Below, piece after piece: positions 1 to 32,701 of a stretch of 46,422 nucleotides of DNA (the first letter of the stretch is position 1; every line of letters begins with the position of its first letter). The DNA lies in assembly GCA_964514935.1 (NCBI GenBank), contig CAZEVZ010000001.1, positions 1-46,422 of the forward strand, given 5' to 3'. The notes beneath the pieces were generated by a model. It made no database searches, was not told where the DNA came from, and worked only from the letters and a program-made list of their open reading frames with translations. Both the position numbers and the translations under genes were made by a program. Source of the stretch: an uncultured Muribaculaceae bacterium (GTDB taxonomy: Bacteria > Bacillota_I > Bacilli_A > RF39 > UBA660).

Positions 1-818
1 ATGCTGCATATAATACACGATTAGAAGATGTCGAAGATTTAATCAGAGCCAATGCAGGATTTCATAATTCAATATTTAGAGGTGAAGATGTCTCAAAATA
101 TATGCCCAGTAGTGTTGTCAATGGTGGGGATGGTTCCATATATGATAGAATTGCTGGTACCAATGGCTATAGTATGTTTGAGGATCTCTATGTTGGAGAC
201 TATATTGTAGCAGATAAAGTTAATGCGACAGTTAATGGAATTGTGTGGCGAATCGCTGGTTTTGATATTTATTATGGAAAAGGTTCTACTCCGCTTAATA
301 CTCATCATGCGGTCATCATACCAGATACGAATTTAACTTCTTCGGTTATGAATGATTCAGCTACGACAGAAGGGGGGTATGTTGGAAGTAAAATGTACAC
401 AACGACAATTCCGAGTGTTTTAACTACCTATATCAATCCGGTATTTAATGGTCATGTACTTTCGCATAGAACATTACGTACAACTTATGTGTGCAATGCA
501 ATAAGTATGGGATATGGTGGTTGGACTGGAACAGCATGTGGTTGGGATTGGTATACGCGTCAAGCTGACTTGATGAATGAGGTACAAGTAACTGGTAATA
601 TGTCCGTTTCTAGTAGCTATGTTGATACGGGAACTGATAATATCCAATTTCCGTTATTCAGGCTAAAACCTGGATTTGTCAATGCGCAGCGAAGCACATA
701 TTGGTTAAGGTCTATTGCATCGTATACATTATTTGCTATAATTGGTGGTTATGGTGTCAGTGATGTAATAGATGCTAATAATTCGTTAGGTGTGCGACCA
801 TACTTCTATATCGGTTAA
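1..818 (+). CDS. Secreted tail-fibre-like family protein, paralogue 1 (5' end lies left of the window); long form with YWLRS...GVRPYFYIG C-terminal domain
   Basis: Frame 3 is open from the window edge. Its translation (AAYNTRLEDVEDLIRANAGFHNSIFRGEDVSKYMPSSVV...) is colinear with residues ~70-330 of the 31648..32640 paralogue. Track ORF 102..818 is only the part after an internal Met. Confidence 0.75.
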   Translation, partial: AAYNTRLEDVEDLIRANAGFHNSIFRGEDVSKYMPSSVVNGGDGSIYDRIAGTNGYSMFEDLYVGDYIVADKVNATVNGIVWRIAGFDIYYGKGSTPLNTHHAVIIPDTNLTSSVMNDSATTEGGYVGSKMYTTTIPSVLTTYINPVFNGHVLSHRTLRTTYVCNAISMGYGGWTGTACGWDWYTRQADLMNEVQVTGNMSVSSSYVDTGTDNIQFPLFRLKPGFVNAQRSTYWLRSIASYTLFAIIGGYGVSDVIDANNSLGVRPYFYIG

Positions 819-1106: not shown

Positions 1107-4100
1107 ATGAATGATAGAAAGAGAATGATATTAACAATCGTAGCAATATTTTTAGTGGGATTAGTCATAACTGGCGGTAGTTATGCTTATTTTTCATGGG
1201 CAGGTGGTGTTAATAAGAACATCATCTTTAATACTGCTGGTGACTTAAAAGATTATATTGTCTATGATGAAGGAGAATCTAAATTTGTTGGTAATCTTCA
1301 GGTAGGCGATGATTATACCGATGGCATTCATTCAACTATTGCCTTAAAGAAAACAGACGATGCAGCTAACATATCACTAATAGCAACAATTCATTTAGAT
1401 GTCAATCAAATTGGTACTAATATGAAGAAGAGCCCAGCTTTAAAATGGACGGTAACTGAAAGAACATCAGGTAATACCGAACTAGAACTTGCTAGTGGTA
1501 ACTTCGTCGGATCTAATGCTGGCGATACATTGACATTAGTGCCTAATATCAATGTAACAACTAGTAAAGTCTATTATACGATTTGGATTTGGCTAGATGA
1601 AGATGAAAATCCAAGTGAGTTACTTTCTGGTGAAACGTTAGATACGAATGTATGGACAGAAATCAATCAACTTGAAGGTACTGAAGATAGATTTGAAGTT
1701 ACAAGAATTAGTGCTAATTATCAGACAATCAGTGCAACTGTAGTGGATAGTAAGTATAAAGTAACTCATTATAAAGTAACTGAAAGTAATACGGTGCCTA
1801 ATAGCTGGACAGAAATTACACCAGCAAGTGATAAGAACAACGTTTATAATTTGACAAGTACTGATAATACAAGAACGGTAAATACAACATATTATGTATG
1901 GTTTAAAGATGAAAATAATAGAACGACATATAAGAGTGTAACTATTACGGCTGTCGATACGACCGAACCAGATTGTAGCTGGGGCACTTGGAATGTGACA
2001 TCAATTGCTAATAATGAGACCGCAAGTATCAATTTAACATGTACCGATGAATCAGAAATTACAAATAGCAATTTGACAGCAAGTAGTTTTGAATTATCAA
2101 ATAACAAAGTAACAATAACCAATGTAACAAAAACAAGTGTAACTGGTGGATATAAATATACAGTAACAGTTAAAGGAACGACAAGTGATGGCGAAACGAC
2201 ATTGACGTTACCAGCTAATACGATAAAGAATGTGTTATATCCAACCGTACAAGGAAATGAGGTAAAAACATCAGCAGCGATAACAGTTGCTAATACATAT
2301 GCCGTTGAATTTGAAACAGCAAATAATAATTGTGCTCTAAATGCTACGACATATGCCGATAGAACAGAAACATATGGAACAGCTTGGACAATAGCTAATC
2401 CAAGTTGTACGGGATATACATTTGCTGGATGGACCGCATCAAATACTCTAGATACGACAAATGCTAAATATGGTGATTCATCTAGTGCAGTAACTACGAC
2501 ATGGTCAAATGCAAGTACTGCAACTAAAGCAACATACTTCAAAGATTTGGCATTAAGAAGCAATAGAACAATAACTTTGACGGCTACATGGACAGCTAAT
2601 GAACTAACATTTAGTAATCAAACGTTAGATAGTGGGGTATATGGAACAGCTTATACATCTAATGCCTTTACAGGTGCAAGTAATGGATCAAATGATTATA
2701 CATATACGATTGTAAGTGGAGCTCCAACTGGAGCAACAATCAGTGGTACAAATAGAACAATCTCATTTACCAATAGTACGAATGCGGGAACATATAACGT
2801 AATTGTCAAAGCAAAGGATAATGTAACCAATGCGGAAAAACAAGCAACGATGACAATTACAATCGAGAGATTAGAAATAACTTTCCCAACATGTACAAGT
2901 CAAGCATATACCGCTGAAGAACAAACTCTATTTGCGGCTCATGATAGTGGACAATACACCAATAGTGTCATCAAAGGAACAAACGTAGATAGTTATACGG
3001 GTGATTTAACGCCTACGGCTAACTATAAATGGAGTAGTGGAAGTAATGTAACAAGTGCCAGAACATTAACTTGTTACATTACAAAAGCAAACACAACCAC
3101 AACATTAGGTAATCAAAATAAAACATATAATGGTGAAAGTCAAGCGGCCAGTGGAGCAACAGCTAAATTAAATAGTAACAATGCCAATATCGCTGGAGCA
3201 GCATTTACGTATAAGTATTATACGAATAATGAATGTAGTACCGGTGAGACAAGTACCGCTCCGACCAATTATGGAACATATTATGTTAAAGCGACACTAA
3301 CAGGAACTGATAACTATAATTCAAGCACTAGTGATTGTAAAACATATACGATGAATAAGAAGGAAATAACGATAACAGCTAAAGATCAAACAATAAATTA
3401 TGGTTCTTCAATAGCAACAGGAACTAGCCAAGTAACGGTAGCAACGTTAGTTACTGGAGATACTTTGGATTCAGTAACGCTAACACCAAGTACTGCAAAT
3501 TACACAACTAATGGTACGATAACCCCGAGTGCTGCCGTAATAAAAAGATCAGGGACAGCAGTAACTAGTAACTATGATATCGAATATGTTGCTGGAGTAC
3601 TAAAAATAAATAAAGTAAATGCAACATGTCCATCATTAACGTCTTATAATGCTGCATATGATGGAAATAAACATTCAATAACCGTAGGGAATAATTCAAG
3701 CGGAGGAACAGTTCAATATAGAACAGCATCAAATGGTGAATGGTCAAATACTAATCCTGAACTAGGCCCAAATGCCGGAACAGATACGACAGTTTATGTT
3801 CAAGTATTGGGAGACTCTAACCATAATACGGTACAGTGTTATGTAACTGGCACAACAAATGCTAAAGTTACCATAACTCAAAAAGCATTGACAAGTACGC
3901 AAATAGATGCCTGGAGTACAACGTGGGTATCTGGGGCAAGTACATATGCGAGAAATAATGTAAGTACCGGAGTTGGAACCGAAAAGATAAACCTAACATA
4001 TACACCAAAAGTGAATGCGGTAGGAACATATGCATATTCAGCGACGGCCGCAGATAATAAATATACCTTAAGTTTATCAAGTAATAATTATTCAGTAAGT

Positions 4101-7100
4101 AGTGCCGGAGATTTTACATTAACGGGAGCAACGATAACCGGAAGTGTAACGATAAGTGGAACAGCAACATGGGGAGAGACATTAACAGCAAATGCCAGCT
4201 GTACGACACCATCATCAGGATGTACATTTGATAACTATCAGTGGAAAGCAGATGGAGTAGACATCAGTGGAGCAACCAGTAGTACATATACGATACCGAA
4301 AGAAAAAGTAGGACAAGTAATAAGCGTCTCTGTAAGAGCAAAAGCTACGAACTATGCGAATAAGACACTAACAAGTAGTGGCACAGATGCGGTAGCAAAA
4401 CAAAATTTATCAGTAACAACAACTAATTATAATGCCGCATACGATGGAAACACCCATTATGCGACCATTAACGTAACGAGTTCTGCTTGGAACGGCTCAA
4501 CTATCGTATCAGGCACAAGTACATCTTATGGAACCAATGTAACGACGAGTGGAGTTGTAAATACCTCTTATAATTTAAAACCAGGATATAGTGACTTTAC
4601 TGATGGCACAAAGACCGTTTATTATAAAGTAACCGGAGGAACATATTATAACGATAAAACCGGAAGTGCAACAGTAACTATAACGAAAGCATCTATGTCG
4701 GGTGGAAGTGTAAGTATTGGTGGTAATAAAATATATGGAAGTATATTAACAGCGACAATATCTGATACGACACCTGCTGCAGATAGTTATACATGTACGT
4801 GGTATTCAAATACAAGTCAATCAAATAGTGGTGGGACACAAATAACAAGCGGAGAGGCCACAAATAAACAATGTACCTATACGATAGGCACAGGCCTAAT
4901 TGGTAAGTATATTTATGTTGAAATAACAGCATCTAAAAGCAACTATTCAAATAGAACATTCAAATCAGATGCGACGAGTGCGATTGCTCAAAGGGAAGTT
5001 GAAGTAACTGCACCAACAATGGCAAGTGGAACACTAACATATAGTGGAAGCGAACAGACTATAACGGGAAATGCTGGAAGTTGTAGTGCTGGTGGAACAA
5101 TGTATTATTACACTACGAACTATACGACAAGTACTGCGCCATCATTCTCAACAAGTACTTGGACTACAACATTCCCAAGTAGTGCAAAGGGTACAAATGC
5201 TAGAACATATTACTTATGGTATTATTGCTATGTAAGTGATACGACAAATAATAAAGCTAAAAGTGGTTCAAGTATCAATACAGCATTAAGTGTCACGAAA
5301 GCAATTGGTAAATATACGCCAAGTATCGCCATAAGTCCAAATACAGGAACGGTAAACTATAATAATAGTACGACATTTACAGCAACTCCAACTACTATAA
5401 GCAGTTGTCAAGGAACATTGACAGCAGCAAGTGCTGATACGACTAAGGTAAGTATTACTGGTGGAGCAAGCAATAGTAATGTAGCCAATGATACTGGTAA
5501 AACAATAACTTGGAAAGGTGTCGGCTATACGACAGATACCAAGATAAATGTTAACTATGCTCCAAGTGATACCAATAACTGTAATAGTGCAACGCAAGTA
5601 CAATATACGGCCGTAGTAAATAAAGTGGTAGCTACTTGTCCGACAACCTTTAATGGTTATAGTGGAACATATGATGGAAGCAGTCATACGGTAACAGTAA
5701 GTGGGCAAAGTGGTGGAACAATAAAATATAGTACTGATAATGCAACATGGGGAGATGATTTACCAACAAGAACTGCTGTTGGTACGACGACAGTCTATGT
5801 AAAAATGGTTGGTGATTCAAACCACACTAATAATAATTCTTGTGGAAGCAAACAGATAGTAATTAATCAAAGAACAGTGACGATAACAGCACCAACGGTA
5901 AATAGTACTACGTTAACATATAACGGAAGCGGGCAGAACTTGTTAGCAACTGCAGGAAGCTGTAGTACTGGTGGTACAATGTATTGGTATAGTTCTAATC
6001 CAACAACGTCAAATAGTGCTCCAACATTCTCAACTAGTACTTGGACAACGACATCACCAACAAATACAAGTTATAAGGGAACTAACGCTGGAACATATTA
6101 TATTTGGTACTATTGTAAAGTAGATGATACGACCAATAATACTGGAACGAATATCAATACTAGATTGAATGTTACTAAAGAAATTCAAACAAAAGGAATA
6201 ACCGGAAGTGTCTCAATAAGTGGAACATCTACTTGGGGGCAAACATTAACTGCTACGGGAACGTGCAGTGATCCAAGTAGTGGATGTTCATTCAGTAATT
6301 ATAAATGGTATTATACGACGAGTGATTCACCAACTGGTGGAACACAGATCGATGGAGCGACAAGCAGTACTTATGAAATTGATAAGAGTTTGGTTGGTAA
6401 ATATATCTATGTTACGGTAGATGCTAGTGCAACGAACTATACGACAAGAACATTAACAAGTACGACGACGACTCCAGCAATTGCAAAACAGAGTTTGTCT
6501 GTAACGAGAACCAATTATACAGGCGATTATGATACAAGTGCACATGGTGTAGTTGTCAAAGTTGATAGCAGTGCTTGGAATGGAAAAACGATCGTCTCTG
6601 GTACGACTACTTCGTATGGTACGACAGTAACAAGTAATGGTGCATATAATACCAACTATACGTTAAGTCCAACATATACGAATGTAACTGGAGAAACTAA
6701 GACAGTTTACTATAAAATAACTGGTGGTGACTATTATAGTGATTATACCGGTAGTGGTACTGTCAACATTGCCAATGCCGATATGAGTGGTGGTAGTGTA
6801 GCTATTAGTGGAACCAATACCTGGGGACAAAAACTAACAGCAACTATCAATAATACGACACCAACAGCGACTTATAAATGTTCTTGGTATTATACGACAA
6901 CTAGCGGAGCGACTTCAAGTGGAACAGCTATTGATGGAGCTACCAATCAAACTCCAAGTAGCAATAAATGTGAATACACAATCGATAAGAGTTTAGTTGG
7001 TAAATATATCTATGTGGTAGTAACGGCATCAAAAACTAACTATAATCCAGTGACATTTGCCGATGCTACAGATGCGACAGCAAATACAACAGCAGCGGTA

Positions 7101-9647
7101 GCAAAGCAAAATTTGTCTGTAACTACAACAAATTATAATAATGCTTATGATAACTCGACACATTATGCGACTATAACAGTAACTTCGTCTGAATGGACTG
7201 GAAAAACCATCGTATCAGGAACAAGTACAAGTTATGGAACTAATGTAACGACGAGTGGAGCAGTAAATACCTCTTATAATTTACAACCTGGATATACGAA
7301 CTTTACTGATGGCGCAAAGACCGTTTACTATAAAGTAACAGGTGGTACTTATTATAAAGATAAAACCGGAAGTGCTACCGTCAATATTACAAAAGCAACA
7401 TGTAATGCACCAACTAATGTGGCGATAAGTAGCGCAGGTATCGTAACTTGGACAGCAAGTAGTAATGCCTCTAGTTATGAAATAAGTTTAAGTTCTGATA
7501 GTGGCTTTGCAAGTGCTACTAGTGGTGTCAACTATAGAAGCACGTTAGTTGCATCAGCGGGCGCAAAGACCGTTTATGTAAGAAGTGTTTGTGATTCAAC
7601 TAATTATACGACACCTAGCGCTAATGCCACTGCATCAATAGATGTTTATACCGTAAGTTTAAGTAATGGTATTGGTGTAAGTGCAACTACTGGTGGTGGA
7701 AGGTATATTAGTGGTGAAACAGTAACTTTAGGGGCAACCGTAATGAGTGGTTATACTTGGAGTAATTGGACACAGACCACTGGTGGTGCCCAAGTAAGTA
7801 CGACCCAAGCATATTCAGCAGCGATAACGGGCAACTGGTCGTATACGGCTAATGCTACCGGTAATACATATACGGCGACATTCTATTACAATAGTAATGC
7901 GACAAATGGTAGTAAAACAGTTGCATCAACGACAAAGAGTTGTACCGTATCGAATAATGCTGGTAACTGTAGTATCGATATACCGACAGCGGTAACTGGA
8001 AGTGTTGGTACATGGAATAATGCTTATGCGGGACTAAGTACAAGTGTTGGTAATATGACCCAAGCTGTAGCTTCAAATGCTTCTTCAATAACTTTGTCAG
8101 GTAATACAACTTATTATTCAATATATAGAACTGCCGTAACGGTATATAGACCAAGTGCGACAAATACATGTACAACACAACAATATTATCGTAATGAATG
8201 GTTTACAAGCACCAGTGCCATAGCAGATCCAGTTTTGTCTACCTCTACGACTGGTACCAGTAGTAGTAATCCAACAGTAGTATCTGGCTATAATTATGAT
8301 AATTCTTACGCTAAAAAAGTTACGACTAGTGCAAGTTTAGGAGGAACAGCATATTCAAGTTTTGGAGAAGCAGCAAAGTCAAATACGACAACTTTTTATG
8401 CGTCATCAAAGAAAACGGTATCAGTAACGGGAACTTTCTATTACCAAAGTAATGCGACAAGTGGTAGTACTACGATATCTTCTAAAACAAAATCAGAGGA
8501 TACGACACAGACATTATATTGTACAAGTACAAGTGCTGCAACAACATCAAACGCAAGTGTCAGCGTAGCAATACCTTCTGAAGTAACTAGCAGTGTTGGT
8601 ACATATAATAATGCATATGCAGGACTTAGTGCTAGTACTGGTAATATGACTGAAGCTGCAGCCTCAAATGCAACATCAGTAAGTATCAATAGTGATAAGA
8701 CGTATTATGCAATATATAGGAAATCATTAACAAATTATTACTATAATAACAATAGTTATACTTCAAGAACATTATATAGAAATCAATGGTTTACAAGTAC
8801 AAGTGCGATGGCCGATCCGGTATTATCTACGAGTAGTACAGGAACAAGTAATTATAGCACAGCTACAGGACCAGGAAGTAGTGCTTGGGCAGGATTATCA
8901 ACGGCAGCCGATACGACAGCCGAATACGCCAGTGTAACAAATGCAGCCAAGTCTAATAGTGGTAATCTTTATACAGTATATCAATTTAATGTAACATATT
9001 CGATAGGCAGCAATGTTTCATCAATTGGTGATACAAGTGGTAGCTGTAAGGTAAGTGCTACAGGAGCTAGTGCTGGCGGTACAAGTTGTACGGTAACATT
9101 ACCAAGTATATCTCCAAATACAGGTTACACATCAGTAGGTTGGAATACGACGAGTGGAGCGACGACAGGTACGGCAGGAGGTAATACTTATACGTTAAGT
9201 TCAAGTGGTGGAACGTTATACGCGAATGCGGTGGATGTAACGGCACCAACTGGAAGTGTCAGTGCTAGTGCGAATATCAATGTAATTACGGCGACAGCAT
9301 CAGTTAGTGATAATGGTAGTGGTTTAGGATCACCAGCTACATATTATTGGAAAGTATCAACTAGTGCAACATGTGATTCAACTGTAACTGGATTTGTTGA
9401 TACAACAACGAATTCATATAGTTATACATCATCTGATATAGGTGTAAACTATGTATGTTTGAAAATATCTGATGTCGCAGGTAATACAGCATATTTCTCT
9501 ACTTCAGCAATATACCTACATGCAAGCATTCTTTCATATGATAATACTGAAACGGAAGTTGATTGTGATACGGCACAGTGTATGATTGATACTATAGATT
9601 GTATACTTGATGGCGGTACTTGGACAGGATCATCATGCTATCGTTAA
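1107..9647 (+). CDS. Giant (2846 aa) N-terminally anchored or secreted repeat adhesin-like surface protein
   Basis: Uninterrupted 8.5-kb ORF with GAGGT 9 nt upstream. The N-terminus MNDRKRMILTIVAIFLVGLVITGGSYAYFSW is a hydrophobic segment plus a GGxYAYFS motif like SipW-cognate (TasA/camelysin-class) signal peptides. The body is T/S/N-rich, with GYTFAGWT (Listeria-Bacteroides-repeat-like) and ...INYG...GDTLDSVTL...YDIEYVAGVLKINK (MBG/YGX-like) modules. The C-terminus is Cys-rich and has no LPXTG. Confidence 0.85.
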   Translation: MNDRKRMILTIVAIFLVGLVITGGSYAYFSWAGGVNKNIIFNTAGDLKDYIVYDEGESKFVGNLQVGDDYTDGIHSTIALKKTDDAANISLIATIHLDVNQIGTNMKKSPALKWTVTERTSGNTELELASGNFVGSNAGDTLTLVPNINVTTSKVYYTIWIWLDEDENPSELLSGETLDTNVWTEINQLEGTEDRFEVTRISANYQTISATVVDSKYKVTHYKVTESNTVPNSWTEITPASDKNNVYNLTSTDNTRTVNTTYYVWFKDENNRTTYKSVTITAVDTTEPDCSWGTWNVTSIANNETASINLTCTDESEITNSNLTASSFELSNNKVTITNVTKTSVTGGYKYTVTVKGTTSDGETTLTLPANTIKNVLYPTVQGNEVKTSAAITVANTYAVEFETANNNCALNATTYADRTETYGTAWTIANPSCTGYTFAGWTASNTLDTTNAKYGDSSSAVTTTWSNASTATKATYFKDLALRSNRTITLTATWTANELTFSNQTLDSGVYGTAYTSNAFTGASNGSNDYTYTIVSGAPTGATISGTNRTISFTNSTNAGTYNVIVKAKDNVTNAEKQATMTITIERLEITFPTCTSQAYTAEEQTLFAAHDSGQYTNSVIKGTNVDSYTGDLTPTANYKWSSGSNVTSARTLTCYITKANTTTTLGNQNKTYNGESQAASGATAKLNSNNANIAGAAFTYKYYTNNECSTGETSTAPTNYGTYYVKATLTGTDNYNSSTSDCKTYTMNKKEITITAKDQTINYGSSIATGTSQVTVATLVTGDTLDSVTLTPSTANYTTNGTITPSAAVIKRSGTAVTSNYDIEYVAGVLKINKVNATCPSLTSYNAAYDGNKHSITVGNNSSGGTVQYRTASNGEWSNTNPELGPNAGTDTTVYVQVLGDSNHNTVQCYVTGTTNAKVTITQKALTSTQIDAWSTTWVSGASTYARNNVSTGVGTEKINLTYTPKVNAVGTYAYSATAADNKYTLSLSSNNYSVSSAGDFTLTGATITGSVTISGTATWGETLTANASCTTPSSGCTFDNYQWKADGVDISGATSSTYTIPKEKVGQVISVSVRAKATNYANKTLTSSGTDAVAKQNLSVTTTNYNAAYDGNTHYATINVTSSAWNGSTIVSGTSTSYGTNVTTSGVVNTSYNLKPGYSDFTDGTKTVYYKVTGGTYYNDKTGSATVTITKASMSGGSVSIGGNKIYGSILTATISDTTPAADSYTCTWYSNTSQSNSGGTQITSGEATNKQCTYTIGTGLIGKYIYVEITASKSNYSNRTFKSDATSAIAQREVEVTAPTMASGTLTYSGSEQTITGNAGSCSAGGTMYYYTTNYTTSTAPSFSTSTWTTTFPSSAKGTNARTYYLWYYCYVSDTTNNKAKSGSSINTALSVTKAIGKYTPSIAISPNTGTVNYNNSTTFTATPTTISSCQGTLTAASADTTKVSITGGASNSNVANDTGKTITWKGVGYTTDTKINVNYAPSDTNNCNSATQVQYTAVVNKVVATCPTTFNGYSGTYDGSSHTVTVSGQSGGTIKYSTDNATWGDDLPTRTAVGTTTVYVKMVGDSNHTNNNSCGSKQIVINQRTVTITAPTVNSTTLTYNGSGQNLLATAGSCSTGGTMYWYSSNPTTSNSAPTFSTSTWTTTSPTNTSYKGTNAGTYYIWYYCKVDDTTNNTGTNINTRLNVTKEIQTKGITGSVSISGTSTWGQTLTATGTCSDPSSGCSFSNYKWYYTTSDSPTGGTQIDGATSSTYEIDKSLVGKYIYVTVDASATNYTTRTLTSTTTTPAIAKQSLSVTRTNYTGDYDTSAHGVVVKVDSSAWNGKTIVSGTTTSYGTTVTSNGAYNTNYTLSPTYTNVTGETKTVYYKITGGDYYSDYTGSGTVNIANADMSGGSVAISGTNTWGQKLTATINNTTPTATYKCSWYYTTTSGATSSGTAIDGATNQTPSSNKCEYTIDKSLVGKYIYVVVTASKTNYNPVTFADATDATANTTAAVAKQNLSVTTTNYNNAYDNSTHYATITVTSSEWTGKTIVSGTSTSYGTNVTTSGAVNTSYNLQPGYTNFTDGAKTVYYKVTGGTYYKDKTGSATVNITKATCNAPTNVAISSAGIVTWTASSNASSYEISLSSDSGFASATSGVNYRSTLVASAGAKTVYVRSVCDSTNYTTPSANATASIDVYTVSLSNGIGVSATTGGGRYISGETVTLGATVMSGYTWSNWTQTTGGAQVSTTQAYSAAITGNWSYTANATGNTYTATFYYNSNATNGSKTVASTTKSCTVSNNAGNCSIDIPTAVTGSVGTWNNAYAGLSTSVGNMTQAVASNASSITLSGNTTYYSIYRTAVTVYRPSATNTCTTQQYYRNEWFTSTSAIADPVLSTSTTGTSSSNPTVVSGYNYDNSYAKKVTTSASLGGTAYSSFGEAAKSNTTTFYASSKKTVSVTGTFYYQSNATSGSTTISSKTKSEDTTQTLYCTSTSAATTSNASVSVAIPSEVTSSVGTYNNAYAGLSASTGNMTEAAASNATSVSINSDKTYYAIYRKSLTNYYYNNNSYTSRTLYRNQWFTSTSAMADPVLSTSSTGTSNYSTATGPGSSAWAGLSTAADTTAEYASVTNAAKSNSGNLYTVYQFNVTYSIGSNVSSIGDTSGSCKVSATGASAGGTSCTVTLPSISPNTGYTSVGWNTTSGATTGTAGGNTYTLSSSGGTLYANAVDVTAPTGSVSASANINVITATASVSDNGSGLGSPATYYWKVSTSATCDSTVTGFVDTTTNSYSYTSSDIGVNYVCLKISDVAGNTAYFSTSAIYLHASILSYDNTETEVDCDTAQCMIDTIDCILDGGTWTGSSCYR
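4135..7400 (+). repeat. Kilobase-scale in-frame segmental duplications inside the giant gene
   Basis: The unit AKQ(N/S)LSVT(T/R)TNY...SSAWNG(S/K)TIVSGT(S/T)TSYGT...KTVYYK(V/I)TGG begins at 4395, 6483 and 7101. ITGSV(T/S)ISGT(A/S)TWG(E/Q)TLTA... recurs near 4135 and 6200. VTAPT...GSCS(A/T)GGTMY(Y/W)Y...PSFSTSTWTTT... recurs near 5000 and 5880. A further pair lies near 7870 and 8430 (FYY(N/Q)SNAT(N/S)GS...). Confidence 0.8.
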
Positions 9648-10255: not shown

Positions 10256-11443
10256 ATGAGAGTTGGAATATTTACAGATAGTTACTATCCTTTGGTCGCA
10301 GGAGTTGCTACCAGTATTGAAATGTTAAAGAATGCTTTGGAAGATATGGGACATACAGTTTATATTGTGGCTCAAAATTTGGAAAATCATCGTTTCATAT
10401 ATGATAAAGAACATAGAATTATCAGATTACCTGGTATTAAGACGAATATTCCCAATATTAGGATTACTCAAATATATTCAATTAAAGCAATGAAGATAAT
10501 TAAAAATGAATGGAATTTGGATATTATTCATACGCAGACAGAAGGAACTGTAGGTTCGTTTTCACATATTGTGGCAAAGAAACTAAATTTACCAATCGTT
10601 CATACTTATCATACTTTATATGAAGATTATATATATTATGTTACACATGGACATTTTGATAAAATGGCAAAGAAAATACTAGCTAAATATACGAAATATT
10701 ACTATGATCATAAGTGTGATGAAGTGATTGTGCCGACAGATAAAATTAAAGATATATTTAATAACAAATACCATATTGATAGAGATATTCATGTAATACC
10801 TAGTGGTATCGATATTAAAAAGTTCTATCCGACAAATATGTCCAAGAAGAAAGCTAAAGAAATAAGAAAAAAATATCATATAAATGATGATGATTTTGTA
10901 ATTGGTTCGGTAGGAAGAATAGCTTCTGAAAAGAGTTTTGATAAAATAATTGCCAATTTGCCAGATCTAATTAAGATGAATAATCATGTTAAATTTATGC
11001 TGGTGGGTGATGGTGTAGAATTGGCTAATTTAAAAAAGTTGGCTAAAGAATTAAAAGTAGATAAAAATGTTATTTTTACAGGTTTAATCGATTATAAAGA
11101 GATTACCAATTATTATCAATCATTCGATGTTATGGTGTCATTTTCGACAACAGAAACACAAGGAATGACGATTGTTGAAGCACTTGCAGCAGCTAGACCT
11201 ACGATATGTGTAAATGATACGAGTTTTCAAGATACAATTCAGGATAATTATAATGGTTATTTATTTAATAATGAAGATGAATTTAAGAAATATGTAATAG
11301 ATTTATGTTGTGATAAAGAATTATATAAATTGTTAAGTAATAATGCTAAAAATAGTGTCTATAGTTATTCAAAAGAAGTGTTTGCGTCGAGAGTACTAAA
11401 GGTATATCATTTAGCCATCAGTAAAAAGAAAAATGAGAAATAA
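10256..11443 (+). CDS. GT4-family glycosyltransferase, probably a diacylglycerol glucosyltransferase-type glycolipid synthase
   Basis: The N-terminus MRVGIFTDSYYPLVAGVATSIEMLKNALEDMGHTVYIV and the later ETQGMTIVEALAAARP motif are typical of GT4/GT-B enzymes such as alpha-monoglucosyl-DAG synthases. Confidence 0.65.
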   Translation: MRVGIFTDSYYPLVAGVATSIEMLKNALEDMGHTVYIVAQNLENHRFIYDKEHRIIRLPGIKTNIPNIRITQIYSIKAMKIIKNEWNLDIIHTQTEGTVGSFSHIVAKKLNLPIVHTYHTLYEDYIYYVTHGHFDKMAKKILAKYTKYYYDHKCDEVIVPTDKIKDIFNNKYHIDRDIHVIPSGIDIKKFYPTNMSKKKAKEIRKKYHINDDDFVIGSVGRIASEKSFDKIIANLPDLIKMNNHVKFMLVGDGVELANLKKLAKELKVDKNVIFTGLIDYKEITNYYQSFDVMVSFSTTETQGMTIVEALAAARPTICVNDTSFQDTIQDNYNGYLFNNEDEFKKYVIDLCCDKELYKLLSNNAKNSVYSYSKEVFASRVLKVYHLAISKKKNEK

Positions 11444-11444
11444 T

Positions 11445-11469
11445 CTATACGACTAAAGTATAGTTTTTT
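11445..11469 (+). terminator. Rho-independent terminator
   Basis: Stem CTATAC (11445-11450) / GTATAG (11458-11463), then a T-run at 11464-11469. Confidence 0.6.
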
Positions 11470-11525
11470 CTTTACTTAATAGTGAGTTTATATTATAATT
11501 TAGTTATGATAAAGAGGGTGTTACG

Positions 11526-13157
11526 ATGAAGAAAATATGGTTATTTATGCTTCAAATAATATTTTTACTTGGTATAGGAGTTAAAAATGTCTATGCGGAT
11601 ATTTATTTAAATTATAATGAATTAAGTATAGGAGTTAATAATAGTTTAAAATTGAGTGTTTCGGGTAGTACATCAGGGTCATATACTTGGTCAAGCAGTA
11701 ATAAAAGTGTGGCTAGTGTAAGTAATGGAACAGTGACTGGTCTTGCAACTGGTACTAGTTATATTAGTGTTTCTGATGGTACTTATACGGCTACATGTAA
11801 AGTGATGGTTGTAACTAATTATATAGCAGTTACAGGAATAAATTTGGCTCAAAAAAGTGGAACAATCGGTGTCAATGGAACTAATAAGATAAGTGCTAGT
11901 GTTAAACCAAGTAATGCCACCAATAAGAAAATTGGTTATTCAAGTAGTGATAAAAGTATTGCCACTGTCGATTCGTCTGGAATTATTACTGGTAAAAAGG
12001 CTGGTACGGCATATATTACAGTTAGTGCTGAAGATAAGACGGCTTCCTATGTGATAACCGTTGTTAGCAATGTCGCTTTGAAAGGAATAAGCATTAGTCC
12101 TAAAAATTTAGAAATCAATGAAAATAGTAGTGGTAAAATAAATATTAGTTATAATCCAAGTAATGCCACCAATAAAAATGTTACTTGGAAGAGTAGTAAT
12201 ACAGATGTGGTAACGGTCGATAATATTGGTAATGTTAAGGCTGTTGCGCCCGGTAGTGCGACAATTACCGTTGTTTCAAATGATGGCGGTTTTGTCGATA
12301 AGGCTAATGTTGTAGTAAATGCTATCGATAAATCTTTAAAAGGCATATCATTAAATAAAAAAGAATTGACTTTAGATGTCGGTAAAACGGAGACTTTGGT
12401 AGTTACTTATAGTCCAAATAATGCGGAAAATAAAGAGGTAACTTGGAAAAGTTCCGATAGTAAAATTGTCAGTGTTGAAGAGGGTAAAATAACGGCTATT
12501 AAGCCCGGTAAAGCGACAATTACGGTAACTAGTAGTGAGGGTGATTATAAGGTAACTTGTCAAGTAAAAGTTCCTTCACCACCAATTGAGGAAATAAAAT
12601 TTAAAAAGGAAGAACAAGCGGTATATATTGGAACAGAAACAACTTTGGAAACAATTGCTACACCGGAAGATGCAATTATTGAAGATGCTTTATGGACCAG
12701 TAGTAATGAAGAAGTTGCTACTGTTGAAGATGGTGTTTTAAAAGCATTAAGTTTAGGAACAACGATAATAACCGTAAGCGATAAAGAGGGTAAAATAACG
12801 GCTTCAACAACAGTTAATGTGGTACCAGAACCAGAAAAAGAATTAAGTATAACAATTTCTGGGTATGAATTAAATTTTAATCCTAATGTCAAAGAATATA
12901 CATTAACTATTGGTAGTGAGAGTAGTCTTCAAATCAATGTCAATCGTGATAGTGATAAAGTAGTTATCGGTGGTAATCGCGATCTTCAAAATGGAAGTAT
13001 TATTACTGTAACTATAAATGATGAAGATAGTGTTACATACGTTATCAATATAAAGAAAAAAGTAAGTTATCTGTTATATTTTATTGCAATAATAACGGTT
13101 CTGCTAATTATAAATATAATAAGGATAATTATTAAAAGTAAGAAAAAAGATCAATAA
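11526..13157 (+). CDS. Surface protein with repeated Big_2 (bacterial Ig-like) domains, a cadherin-like beta-sandwich region and a C-terminal membrane anchor
   Basis: It has a signal peptide (MKKIWLFMLQIIFLLGIGVKNVYA) and about six repeats of the pattern ...SSN..VATVD..G.V.A...G.A.ITV.... It then has GYELNFNPNVKEYTLTIG and a hydrophobic tail followed by KSKKKDQ. Confidence 0.75.
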   Translation: MKKIWLFMLQIIFLLGIGVKNVYADIYLNYNELSIGVNNSLKLSVSGSTSGSYTWSSSNKSVASVSNGTVTGLATGTSYISVSDGTYTATCKVMVVTNYIAVTGINLAQKSGTIGVNGTNKISASVKPSNATNKKIGYSSSDKSIATVDSSGIITGKKAGTAYITVSAEDKTASYVITVVSNVALKGISISPKNLEINENSSGKINISYNPSNATNKNVTWKSSNTDVVTVDNIGNVKAVAPGSATITVVSNDGGFVDKANVVVNAIDKSLKGISLNKKELTLDVGKTETLVVTYSPNNAENKEVTWKSSDSKIVSVEEGKITAIKPGKATITVTSSEGDYKVTCQVKVPSPPIEEIKFKKEEQAVYIGTETTLETIATPEDAIIEDALWTSSNEEVATVEDGVLKALSLGTTIITVSDKEGKITASTTVNVVPEPEKELSITISGYELNFNPNVKEYTLTIGSESSLQINVNRDSDKVVIGGNRDLQNGSIITVTINDEDSVTYVINIKKKVSYLLYFIAIITVLLIINIIRIIIKSKKKDQ

Positions 13158-13429: not shown

Positions 13430-14494
13430 ATGAAGAAAATATGGAAGGATAATGCGAAGTTAATACTGATTGTGACTATAGCAATTGTTTTGGCTAGTGG
13501 AGCAACGTATGCGGCAACGACAATGTATGATTCAAATATCGTTGGATATGATAATACGACTAGTGGTTTAAGATCTACGAATGTACAATCTGCTTTAGAT
13601 GAATTGTATGGTACAGTTGCTGAAGTAATTATCAATATTCGAGATAAAGTAGAGGAACTATATGAAATAAAAGATATTGCCAGCGGTGAAAGTCCCGCAG
13701 GGTTACATAATGCGATATTTAGAGGTAAAAACGTTTCAAAATATATGCCAAGTAGTATTGTCTCTGGAGGTGATGGTTCGATATACGATCGAATAGCTGG
13801 CACGAATGGTTATTCAATGTTTCAAGATTTATATGTTGGTGATTATATTGTTGCTGATAATGTCAACGATACAGTCAATGGTATCGTGTGGAGGATAGCT
13901 GGTTTTGATATATATTATATGTCTGGATATCCGACGGCGCTATCAAGTCATCATGCAGTGATAGTGCCTGATGAAATATTGGGAAAAGCAAAAATGAATA
14001 CATCAAATGTTACAACTGGTGGCTATGTAGGAAGTGCTATGTACACAACATTGACATCAACAACATTACCAACATATATTACTCCAATATTTGGTAGTCA
14101 CGTACTTGAATATAATACATTATTATCAAATGATGTAGGAACAACTTTATATAATAGATATGGTAGTAATACAGGTGCTTCAAATAATTGGAGTTGGTAT
14201 AATAGAAAATTAGATTTGATGAACGAAGTACAAGTGACTGGAGCAACTGAATGGTCAAGCAGTGGATTTGATATTGGTGCAGACACTGTTCAATTTCCAT
14301 TATTTAGACTAAGACCAGAATTTAAAATAGCCTATACCAGTAATGTGCATTCTTCAGATACTAGAGCTCATTATTGGTTACGTTCAGTGATGTCCTCATC
14401 CTCTTTTGCGTTTATTGCAGGTGAAGGATGTAGTGGTATGGGTGTTTTCGCGGGTGAACAATATGGTGTTCGTCCATACTTCTATATTGGATAA
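13430..14494 (+). CDS. Secreted tail-fibre-like family protein, paralogue 2 (long form, YWLRS...GVRPYFYIG domain)
   Basis: The Shine-Dalgarno is GGTGAT. The signal peptide is MKKIWKDNAKLILIVTIAIVLASGATYA, followed by the YDNTTSGLRSTNVQSALDELY motif. The C-terminal ~250 aa are colinear with paralogues 1 and 5. Confidence 0.85.
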   Translation: MKKIWKDNAKLILIVTIAIVLASGATYAATTMYDSNIVGYDNTTSGLRSTNVQSALDELYGTVAEVIINIRDKVEELYEIKDIASGESPAGLHNAIFRGKNVSKYMPSSIVSGGDGSIYDRIAGTNGYSMFQDLYVGDYIVADNVNDTVNGIVWRIAGFDIYYMSGYPTALSSHHAVIVPDEILGKAKMNTSNVTTGGYVGSAMYTTLTSTTLPTYITPIFGSHVLEYNTLLSNDVGTTLYNRYGSNTGASNNWSWYNRKLDLMNEVQVTGATEWSSSGFDIGADTVQFPLFRLRPEFKIAYTSNVHSSDTRAHYWLRSVMSSSSFAFIAGEGCSGMGVFAGEQYGVRPYFYIG

Positions 14495-31389: not shown

Positions 31390-31415
31390 AACATCACTAA
31401 TTATAGTGGTGTTTT
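31390..31415. terminator. mtaB terminator, bidirectional, left of cassette D
   Basis: Stem AACATCACTA (31390-31399) / TAGTGGTGTT (31404-31413). It has a T-run on the right and an A-run on the left. Confidence 0.6.
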
Positions 31416-31418
31416 ACA

Positions 31419-31632
31419 ATGTCAACTATAGGTTGCAAAGTCCTTAAGTATTTTACTTGAGGACTATCATTTCTATTAAAATAATACCATAAAATAAGGG
31501 AATGTGCAATAAAAATGGTGGTAATTTTTGAGAAAAAATTTTGTGTCAAATTTTCTTCATATTTTTGATAATCTCTTTATTTATAAGCATCTATGGAGAT
31601 AATAAAAGTTCTAAAGTAAAATACTTAAGGAC
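31419..31632. promoter_or_regulatory. Switch cassette D (candidate invertible promoter)
   Basis: The dyad is at 31419-31439. IR-L is at 31440-31464. IR-R is GTTCTAAAGTAAAATACTTAAGGAC at 31608-31632 (23/25). The minus-strand promoter is TTGCAC (31509-31504), 17 nt, TGgTATTAT (31486-31481). Confidence 0.6.
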
Positions 31633-31647
31633 AGAATGGTGATAAAG

Positions 31648-32640
31648 ATGAAGAAAATATGGAAGGACAATGCAAAGTTAATATTGATTGTAACTATAGC
31701 AATTGTATTGGCTAGTGGAGCGACATATGCCGCCACGACAATGTATGAATCAAATACCGTTGGCTATGATAATACGACAAGTGGACTTAATTCAACCAAT
31801 GTACAGGGAGCACTAGATGAACTATACGTATCAGCAAATAATTATGTAGCATATGATACTAGATTAGAAAATGTAGAAGATTTAATAAGAGCTAACGCAG
31901 GATTTCATAATTCAATATTTAGAGGAGAAGATGTTTCAAGTTATATGCCAAGTAGTGTTGTTTCTGGAGGAGATGGCTCTATATATAACCGAATTTCAGG
32001 AAATGGTTACTCATTATTTGAAGACTTATATGTCGGAGATTATATCGTAGCCAATAATATAACATGGCGAATAGCAGGATTTGATATCTATTATGGCAAA
32101 GGAGATACGGCATTTAATACTCATCACGCTGTAATTGTTCCTGACACGAACTTAACTAGTGCCGTTATGAATGATTCGAATACCACAAGTGGAGGATATG
32201 TTGGAAGTAAGATGTATACGACGACCTTACCAAGTGTTCTAACTACTTACATCAATCCCGTATTTAGTGGCCATGTACTATCACATAGAACATTATTAAC
32301 GAATAGTGTAGGTACTAGTGTAGCAAGTTCTGGATATGCAGGTTGGACTGGTGCAGCAAATAGTTGGGCTTGGTATGATAGACAAGTAGATTTGATGAAT
32401 GAAGTGCAAGTTACTGGCACTACAGCGGTATCAAGTAGTTTTTTCGATGTCGGGGCAGATAATATTCAATTCCCATTATTTAGACTAAGGCCAGAATTTG
32501 TTAATAAGCAGAGAAGTTGGTATTGGTTGCGTTCGGTTTCGTCCTCGTCTTATTTTGCTCTTATCAACGGCGGCGGGGATAGCAACCTCGGCAGCGCAAG
32601 CAACTCTTGCGGGGTGCGCCCAGCTTTTTACATCGGTTAA
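31648..32640 (+). CDS. Secreted tail-fibre-like family protein, paralogue 5 (long form; GC-rich NNC-codon 3' end)
   Basis: The start is at MKKIW as in the other paralogues (the track ORF begins 4 codons earlier). It is colinear with paralogue 1 and ends YWLRSVSSSSYFALINGGGDSNLGSASNSCGVRPAFYIG. Confidence 0.85.
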   Translation: MKKIWKDNAKLILIVTIAIVLASGATYAATTMYESNTVGYDNTTSGLNSTNVQGALDELYVSANNYVAYDTRLENVEDLIRANAGFHNSIFRGEDVSSYMPSSVVSGGDGSIYNRISGNGYSLFEDLYVGDYIVANNITWRIAGFDIYYGKGDTAFNTHHAVIVPDTNLTSAVMNDSNTTSGGYVGSKMYTTTLPSVLTTYINPVFSGHVLSHRTLLTNSVGTSVASSGYAGWTGAANSWAWYDRQVDLMNEVQVTGTTAVSSSFFDVGADNIQFPLFRLRPEFVNKQRSWYWLRSVSSSSYFALINGGGDSNLGSASNSCGVRPAFYIG

Positions 32641-32701
32641 ATTGTTAAAATAAAAGCAGACCATTTGCTATGTGTCTACTCTTATTTTTTTTAATATTAT
32701 G

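Follow-up and report, generated by a model that had tools for sequence, protein, structure and literature searches.

Five open reading frames in the window, by which we mean the whole 46,422-nt stretch of DNA analyzed here, a complete NCBI contig of 31.8% G+C, share an N-terminal segment (MKKIWKDNAKLILIV...ASGATYAATTMYDSNIVGYDNTTSGL), and three of them, paralogue 1 (102..818), paralogue 2 (13430..14494) and paralogue 5, also share a C-terminal head. Paralogue 5 (p5) has a chromosomal setting among housekeeping genes, with a MiaB-like gene upstream and clpB downstream. At the N-terminus of its product lies a membrane-anchor helix; a helical stalk follows, and a globular DUF6273 / C-type-lectin-like head completes the protein. 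A sequence-only reading of this DNA had proposed that the GC-rich 3′ end of the gene is the variable region (VR) of a diversity-generating retroelement (DGR) whose other parts lie elsewhere. The VR as delimited here codes residues 294-333 of 334, that is, the 3′ end of the ORF, inside the lectin-like head. The coordinates of all features are collected in Table 1.

Table 1. Features of p5 and of its paralogues, in positions of the window.
Feature	Position	Strand	Basis or remark
p5 gene, 334 aa	31636..32640	+	ORF; the exact protein starting at 31636 is present in the protein collection
VR block, 120 nt	32517..32636	+	unit common to p5 and the diverged L002 paralogue; edges fit verified VR/TR pairs
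Hypervariable core	32561..32608	+	all 17 differences from L002; candidate template-adenine sites (AAY -> NNC/NNT)
GC-rich 14-mer GGGGTGCGCCCAGC, codes GVRP(A)	32611..32624	+	12/14 bases G+C; IMH-like position
Weak hairpin and T-run, probably the p5 terminator	32658..32692	+	DNA fold
Paralogue 1 tail	699..818	+	AT-rich codons including ATA, GTA and TTA; third-position G+C 0.27; not a fresh VR
Paralogue 2 tail	14372..14494	+	AT-rich codons; third-position G+C 0.24; not a fresh VR
Conserved leader of paralogues 2-5 (p5 copy)	31415..31635	+	two oppositely oriented near-palindromic 31-mers, 31440-31470 and 31601-31632
Leader repeat pairs	13224-13254/13385-13415; 26337-26367/26499-26529; 27265-27295/27427-27457; 31440-31470/31601-31632		paralogues 2-5

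The leaders of paralogues 2-5 are 230-300 nt long and 69-91% identical between copies. Each holds two opposed copies, ~130 nt apart, of a near-palindromic 25-31-mer, GTCCTTAAGTATTTTACTTGAGGAC (repeat families D1 and I2-I22), the first of which also scores as a terminator-like hairpin. They may serve as sites for an invertase, as operators, or as hairpins such as terminators. The sequence-only reading had suggested that hypervariation might be stacked on phase variation; inverted 31-mers do lie upstream of paralogues 2-5, each of them near-palindromic in itself. No alternative orientation of the leader was found in the related loci L002, L004 or L005, and the upstream repeat copy is missing from L002. 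Elsewhere in the family, the loci L039 and L040 are syntenic with window 21025-26305, from the gene of a 174-aa protein through the DnaD-like and HhH-GPD genes. At 26544-28056 the window continues with the short paralogues 3 and 4, whose C-termini are unrelated; L039 (5892-8094) and L040 (74-2276) instead carry a full-length DUF6273 paralogue and a Gp10_C protein, as though one cassette had been exchanged for another at a conserved locus. Immediately 3′ of paralogue 1, positions 1107-9647 encode a Thr/Ser/Asn-rich protein of 2,846 aa. It contains long internal repeats whose units recur at 588-2,088-nt spacing and is probably a large surface protein.

The AlphaFold2 model of p5, computed from an alignment of 73 sequences, has a mean pLDDT of 84, with values >90 over most of residues 100-334. 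It places helices at residues 3-38 (N-terminal) and 56-94 (stalk) and a globular domain from about residue 100 to residue 334. The Pfam family DUF6273 (PF19789) matches residues 292-333 with 21.3 bits (E = 2.7e-4) against a gathering threshold of 23.5 bits, the match spanning only the last ~45 profile positions; the paralogue on L002 reaches 25.7 bits, above this cut-off. Searching the model against BFVD with Foldseek returned phage proteins (E 1e-25 to 1e-6, TM up to 0.68), among them proteins named as receptor-binding proteins and many DUF6273 proteins. DUF6273 has a C-lectin-like fold (PMC10743442), and DUF6273 domains with a C-terminal DGR VR have been published as DGR targets in gut phages (PMC11792537, PMC10743442). 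The p5 head is homologous to the prophage tail receptor-binding tips that DGRs diversify. Among solved structures in the PDB, the best match was the IgA peptidase of Thomasclavelia ramosa (9qa6; E 5e-4, TM 0.36 on the query), followed by weak matches at E 0.27-3 that include C-type lectins and the C-terminal domain of Legionella Lcl (DUF1566, E 0.27). The peptidase match hints that the head domain is also present in a protein through which a gut Firmicute interacts with its host. At the protein level, the search with p5 recovered 6,472 relatives; the closest homologue, P0006 (NCBI), is 86% identical, and relatives at 53-58% identity come from MAGs called uncultured Clostridia, Bacilli or Tenericutes.

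The tail of p5 stands out sharply in composition. Recomputing the G+C content of 32561-32620 gave 65%, as had been counted by hand in the sequence-only reading, and the 60-nt peak at 32565-32624 reaches 70%, the maximum of the entire window and ~4.9 sd above its mean (31.8% per 60 nt, sd 7.8%). In the last 45 codons of p5, third-position G+C reaches 0.60, versus 0.23 in the gene body, and among the 17 codons at 32560-32610, 12 have C as their last base, versus 10.5% of codons in the body (binomial P = 7e-9). The further details of the reading also agree with the sequence: 12 of the first 16 codons in its codon string are C-ending and three are AAC, the block TGCGGGGTGCGCCCAGC lies at 32608-32624, and paralogue 1 encodes similar residues at the equivalent positions with codons of the GGT/AGT/AAT/ATA types.

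Homologues of p5 are found within complete DGR cassettes. At 22 homologue loci (L003, L006, L007, L010, L013, L016-L030, L033 and L034) the genes follow the order target, Avd, TR (template repeat), RT (reverse transcriptase). A protein-pattern scan of the GTDB representative genomes yielded 31 loci, 19 of which have Avd and RT homologues directly downstream; the same arrangement occurs in both IMG/VR loci and in L003. In nearly all of the 22 cassettes, the templates are AAY-rich and the VR/TR mismatches fall mostly at TR adenines (for example, 15/15 in L026, 16/17 in L023 and 17/19 in L006). L003 (P0119) illustrates the arrangement: a prophage tail module is followed by the target, a 186-aa protein in the Avd position for which no family match was found, a 91-nt repeat and an RVT_1 protein. 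The VR of this locus (11648-11738) differs from the TR (12375-12465; 91 nt) at 11 positions, and 11/11 are TR adenines. The tails of the 549-580-aa relatives, of which P0119 is one, follow the pattern ...SSRFAxVxxxGxSxxxxASATGGVRPCFYID, with change confined to fixed positions. Because L003 and the GTDB and IMG/VR cassettes show A-site VR/TR mismatches, we conclude that the C-terminal domain family of p5 is a widespread DGR target in prophages of gut Firmicutes.

Two of the loci depart from this pattern. In L033, an RT-bearing locus, the apparent template has no AAY codons and differs from the VR at 7 positions, 2 of them adenines (10699-10791 and 11408-11500), as if the TR had been overwritten by VR-like sequence; the near-identical cassette of L030 keeps a normal AAY-rich TR. 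In L011 (MAG MGBC121705, 9029-10810), a phage-type homologue of 593 aa has a truncated or frameshifted VR (ending in …GAGGVAPMTLSTHK and a stop) and is followed by neither Avd nor RT, unlike its close relative L013; it looks like a decayed DGR cassette.

An informative second copy of the p5 VR scaffold lies on L002, an independent metagenome contig from another sample (ENA ERZ27256812), in a paralogue of the chromosomal type that has the family leader and anchor, a body resembling that of paralogue 2, and 61% protein identity to p5. L002 1187-1306 aligns without gaps to window 32517-32636, and the scaffold is identical at 103/103 positions, while the flanking gene DNA around the block is 58-88% identical and homology stops at the last sense codon, the sequences downstream being unrelated. 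All 17 differences between the two copies lie within 32561-32608, and they are distributed as 8 at codon position 1, 9 at position 2 and 0 at position 3, with an A present in one copy at 13 of the 17 sites. The variation is thus confined to codon positions 1 and 2, and the scaffold is otherwise invariant. Upstream of the block, the same two genes diverge by 27%, 23% and 42% at codon positions 1, 2 and 3; given this third-position divergence of 42%, the probability of zero third-position differences in 40 codons is ~3e-10. Such a pattern is the trace that adenine mutagenesis leaves when an AAY-rich template is shared, and the two VRs look as if one template, or two that are almost the same, had been used to write them.

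The two VR copies, p5 and L002, were all that entered the reconstruction of a template. With the variable sites set to A, the inferred p5 template reads ...TTTGCT AAT AAC AAC AAC AAC GGG AAT AAC AAC AAC AAC AAC GCA AGC AAC TAT AAC GGGGTGCGCCCAGCTTTTTACATCGG. Real TRs of RT-bearing loci are closer to this sequence than to the VR (75% versus 64% over 85 nt for L024), and the L010 TR is 81% identical to it over 58 nt. The AAY codons of the reconstruction fall at the same places as those in the templates of L003 and L010, and where codons vary in p5, the verified TRs of the homologous target-Avd-TR-RT cassettes have AAY. The boundaries of the p5 VR block likewise match those of verified VR/TR pairs. 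At the position of GGGGTGCGCCCAGC, the verified relatives have a GC-rich element that is invariant between VR and TR, such as GGTGTTCGCCCCTG in L003 and GGCGTGCGCCCG in L023, which suggests that GGGGTGCGCCCAGC is a putative IMH-like 3′ element of the p5 VR.

We searched for the template and the enzyme in the window and in public collections. The sequence-only reading had seen neither an RT nor a template repeat in the window, and both searches there came back empty: a degenerate pattern requiring A or the same base at each position, with at most 3 mismatches, matched only the VR itself, and tblastn with the DGR RT and the Avd of a relative gave a best E of 2.9 in the 46-kb contig. A core pattern with N at every candidate A site had zero matches in the GTDB representatives, IMG/VR and JGI metagenome contigs, collections that do not include the source assembly; the 5′-scaffold and 3′-end patterns also had zero matches, and blastn of the inferred TR against INPHARED phages returned nothing. 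The contig of the window was itself absent from the GTDB scan results, the source assembly not being a species representative. None of the fetched loci contained a template-like match to the p5 VR, nor did any fetched sequence contain one to the tail of paralogue 1. Within 10 kb of the chromosomal-type relatives on L004, L005, L008 and L039-L041, there was no RT, Avd or TR. Since the window and the flanks of these relatives are without DGR parts, p5-type genes, if they are diversified, are diversified from a distance.

Evidence on current activity comes from a second copy of the locus, from the DNA downstream of the VR and from the state of the scaffold. The second copy, L001 (ENA ERZ28018901), has a VR identical to that of p5 at 120/120 positions, and as it is the only other copy, no variation at the p5 locus itself was observed. 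L001 and the window share long blocks of 100% identity; because the two are so close, the identical VR counts only weakly against activity. Along L001 1-1210, aligned to window 31638-32700, the 100% blocks (the middle, the VR and the downstream flank) alternate with stretches of ~80% identity (L001 1-410 and 641-900), and the p5-type gene of L001 is split into two ORFs. This mosaic indicates recombination among paralogues or alleles, or else a chimeric metagenome assembly.

BPP-1 requires a hairpin or cruciform immediately 3′ of its VR, an element that is not universal among DGRs. In L003, a hairpin at 11741-11785, right after the verified VR, has a DNA-fold z of -5.5. We found no strong hairpin 3′ of the p5 VR (z = -1.0 for the DNA fold of 32600-32680), and none comparable to that of L003 after the VRs of p5, L002 or L004. 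For p5, this lack likewise speaks against current activity. The p5 scaffold is nonetheless undecayed, still GC-rich amid the AT-rich codons of the genome, which speaks for recent writing.

The tails of the other chromosomal paralogues provide a scale for this comparison. Those of paralogues 1 and 2 share the framework YWLRS...FA...G...GVRPxFYIG with p5, and over 44 nt the tail of paralogue 2 matches the 5′ scaffold of the p5 VR at 77% identity, its synonymous changes going in the AT direction. Over the last ~42 codons, third-position G+C rises from 0.14 (L005 19536-20594) through 0.31 (L039), 0.38 (L005 10001-11047) and 0.52 (L041) to 0.60 in L004 and in p5, 0.62 in L002 and 0.69 in L008, versus 0.17-0.28 in the bodies of these genes. 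The tail of P0008, partly AT-shifted, is identical in two samples. The gradient suggests VRs at different stages of decay, with paralogues 1 and 2 at the decayed or never-targeted end.

Overall, the tail of p5 was very probably written by a DGR. The proposal of a DGR VR in a lectin-fold C-terminus is supported by the A-site pattern relative to L002, the fit of the AAY codons to verified TRs and the matching block boundaries. With less assurance, though still as the reading we consider probable, we take the tail to be a VR whose template and RT lie elsewhere in the genome, or did so until very recently. We infer that p5 is a remote target of a DGR in the same genome and that homing was recent. 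An AAY-rich template repeat elsewhere would be transcribed, an error-prone RT would copy the template RNA while misreading adenines, and the cDNA would replace the VR of p5, rewriting ~13 codons of the ligand-binding surface and resetting the other positions to the GC-rich template. Replacement from a GC-rich AAY template would thereby explain both the foreign composition and the NNC codons. Points against this reading are the empty searches for a template, RT or Avd in the window, the zero matches to the scaffold in the GTDB, IMG/VR, JGI and INPHARED collections, the identical VR of L001, the missing strong hairpin 3′ of the p5 VR and the lack of DGR parts within 10 kb of the chromosomal-type relatives.

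The tail may instead be a VR that a DGR once wrote and that is now frozen, its cognate template and RT, prophage-borne or cellular for example, having since been lost. In that case, its codons will become AT-rich by drift, as they are in the tails of paralogues 1 and 2. This accords with the identical VR of L001, with the lack of a cognate TR or RT in the window and in the collections searched, with the tail gradient among the chromosomal paralogues, with L011 as a relative that has a broken VR and no RT, and with the identical tail of P0008 in two samples. We nevertheless regard it as rather unlikely. The p5 scaffold shows zero decay, matching L002 at every one of its sites and keeping its high third-position G+C, so that any loss of the cognate DGR must have been very recent; moreover, absence from the public collections says little, as the source assembly is not among them.

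A recombinational patch, in which the 120-nt tail was imported from an already diversified phage tail gene or paralogue and p5 was never itself a retrohoming substrate, appears improbable. The family is mosaic, as the alternation of 100% and ~80% blocks in L001 relative to p5 illustrates, the same VR scaffold is borne by a p5-type body in the window and by a p2-type body in L002, and the syntenic L039/L040 locus holds a different cassette, all of which such a patch would accommodate. The edges of the block, however, coincide with verified VR/TR boundaries and not with arbitrary breakpoints, the two genes that carry the scaffold are both of the chromosomal type and have the leader and anchor of the family, and the A-site differences would still need a DGR. 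Simple patching from a GC-richer homologue, which the sequence-only reading had named as an alternative, can be set aside: no GC-richer homologue shares the tail DNA, and the relatives from Lachnospiraceae and Faecalibacterium are at most ~60% identical in the segment. That no DGR was involved, and that the tail is a compositional quirk of chance or of selection on Gly/Ser/Asn-rich loops, is effectively refuted: G/S/N/D-rich residues do favor some G/C at codon positions 1 and 2, but the excess sits at synonymous third positions, AT-rich codons suffice for similar loops in paralogues 1 and 2, which also rejects codon or amino-acid selection, and the scaffold is invariant, with variation from L002 at positions 1 and 2 only.

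The preferred reading, a VR written from a distant template, places p5 close to several known systems. In the Faecalibacterium prophages Lelie, Roos and Pioen (PMC11792537), as in p5, the VR lies at the C-terminal end of a DUF6273 domain and ends in GVRPxF, and the 'tentaclins', DUF6273 targets of gut Firmicutes prophages and crAss-like phages (PMC10743442), belong to the same domain family. These prophage targets and p5 are alike in their AAY-rich template design (for p5, in the reconstructed template) and GC-rich 3′ element. Unlike them, p5 lies outside a prophage tail module, on the chromosome between housekeeping genes; its product is anchored in the membrane at the N-terminus, its leader recurs within its paralogue family, and it is without an adjacent Avd, TR or RT.

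Remote DGR targets are documented in the TvpA family of Treponema denticola, with seven remote targets (survey PMC5758913). Like p5 in the preferred reading, TvpA-type targets are VR genes far from the RT or on another contig, and in both cases a genome holds several paralogous candidate targets, surface-exposed and with a lectin-fold C-terminus. They differ in that no TR or RT for p5 was found in the window or the collections and in that the domain of p5 is DUF6273 and not of the FGE-sulfatase type. With the prototype DGR of Bordetella phage BPP-1, whose target is Mtd, p5 shares a C-terminal VR in a protein of C-type-lectin fold, adenine-specific mutagenesis of AAC-type codons (for p5 as judged by sequence comparison) and a GC-rich 3′ end of the VR. 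In contrast to BPP-1, the DNA that follows the VR of p5 forms no strong hairpin or cruciform, and p5 shows no sequence similarity to Mtd, which was also not among its fold matches.

To our knowledge, DUF6273-headed DGR targets have so far been described as phage tail or receptor-binding proteins. The setting of p5 differs in this respect, since it belongs to a chromosomal, membrane-anchored paralogue family of an uncultured gut Firmicute and is not a phage tail gene. For the detection of such genes, the VR could be recognized without a template, from a local G+C spike together with NNC codons where a lectin-fold gene ends, and a second copy of the VR, that of L002, sufficed for the reconstruction of the template.

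If the cognate DGR is in the genome, p5 would be a cellular surface protein hypermutated from a distance, and one template may serve several diverged paralogues. More tentatively, a phage DUF6273 head may have been domesticated as a multi-copy, anchored surface family in which one remote, possibly prophage-borne DGR writes some paralogues in trans while others decay, all of them behind a switch-like leader; if so, the cell could combine the choice of a paralogue with hypermutation of the one chosen. The coexistence of fresh and decayed tails in one family would provide a natural series on the gain and loss of DGR targets.
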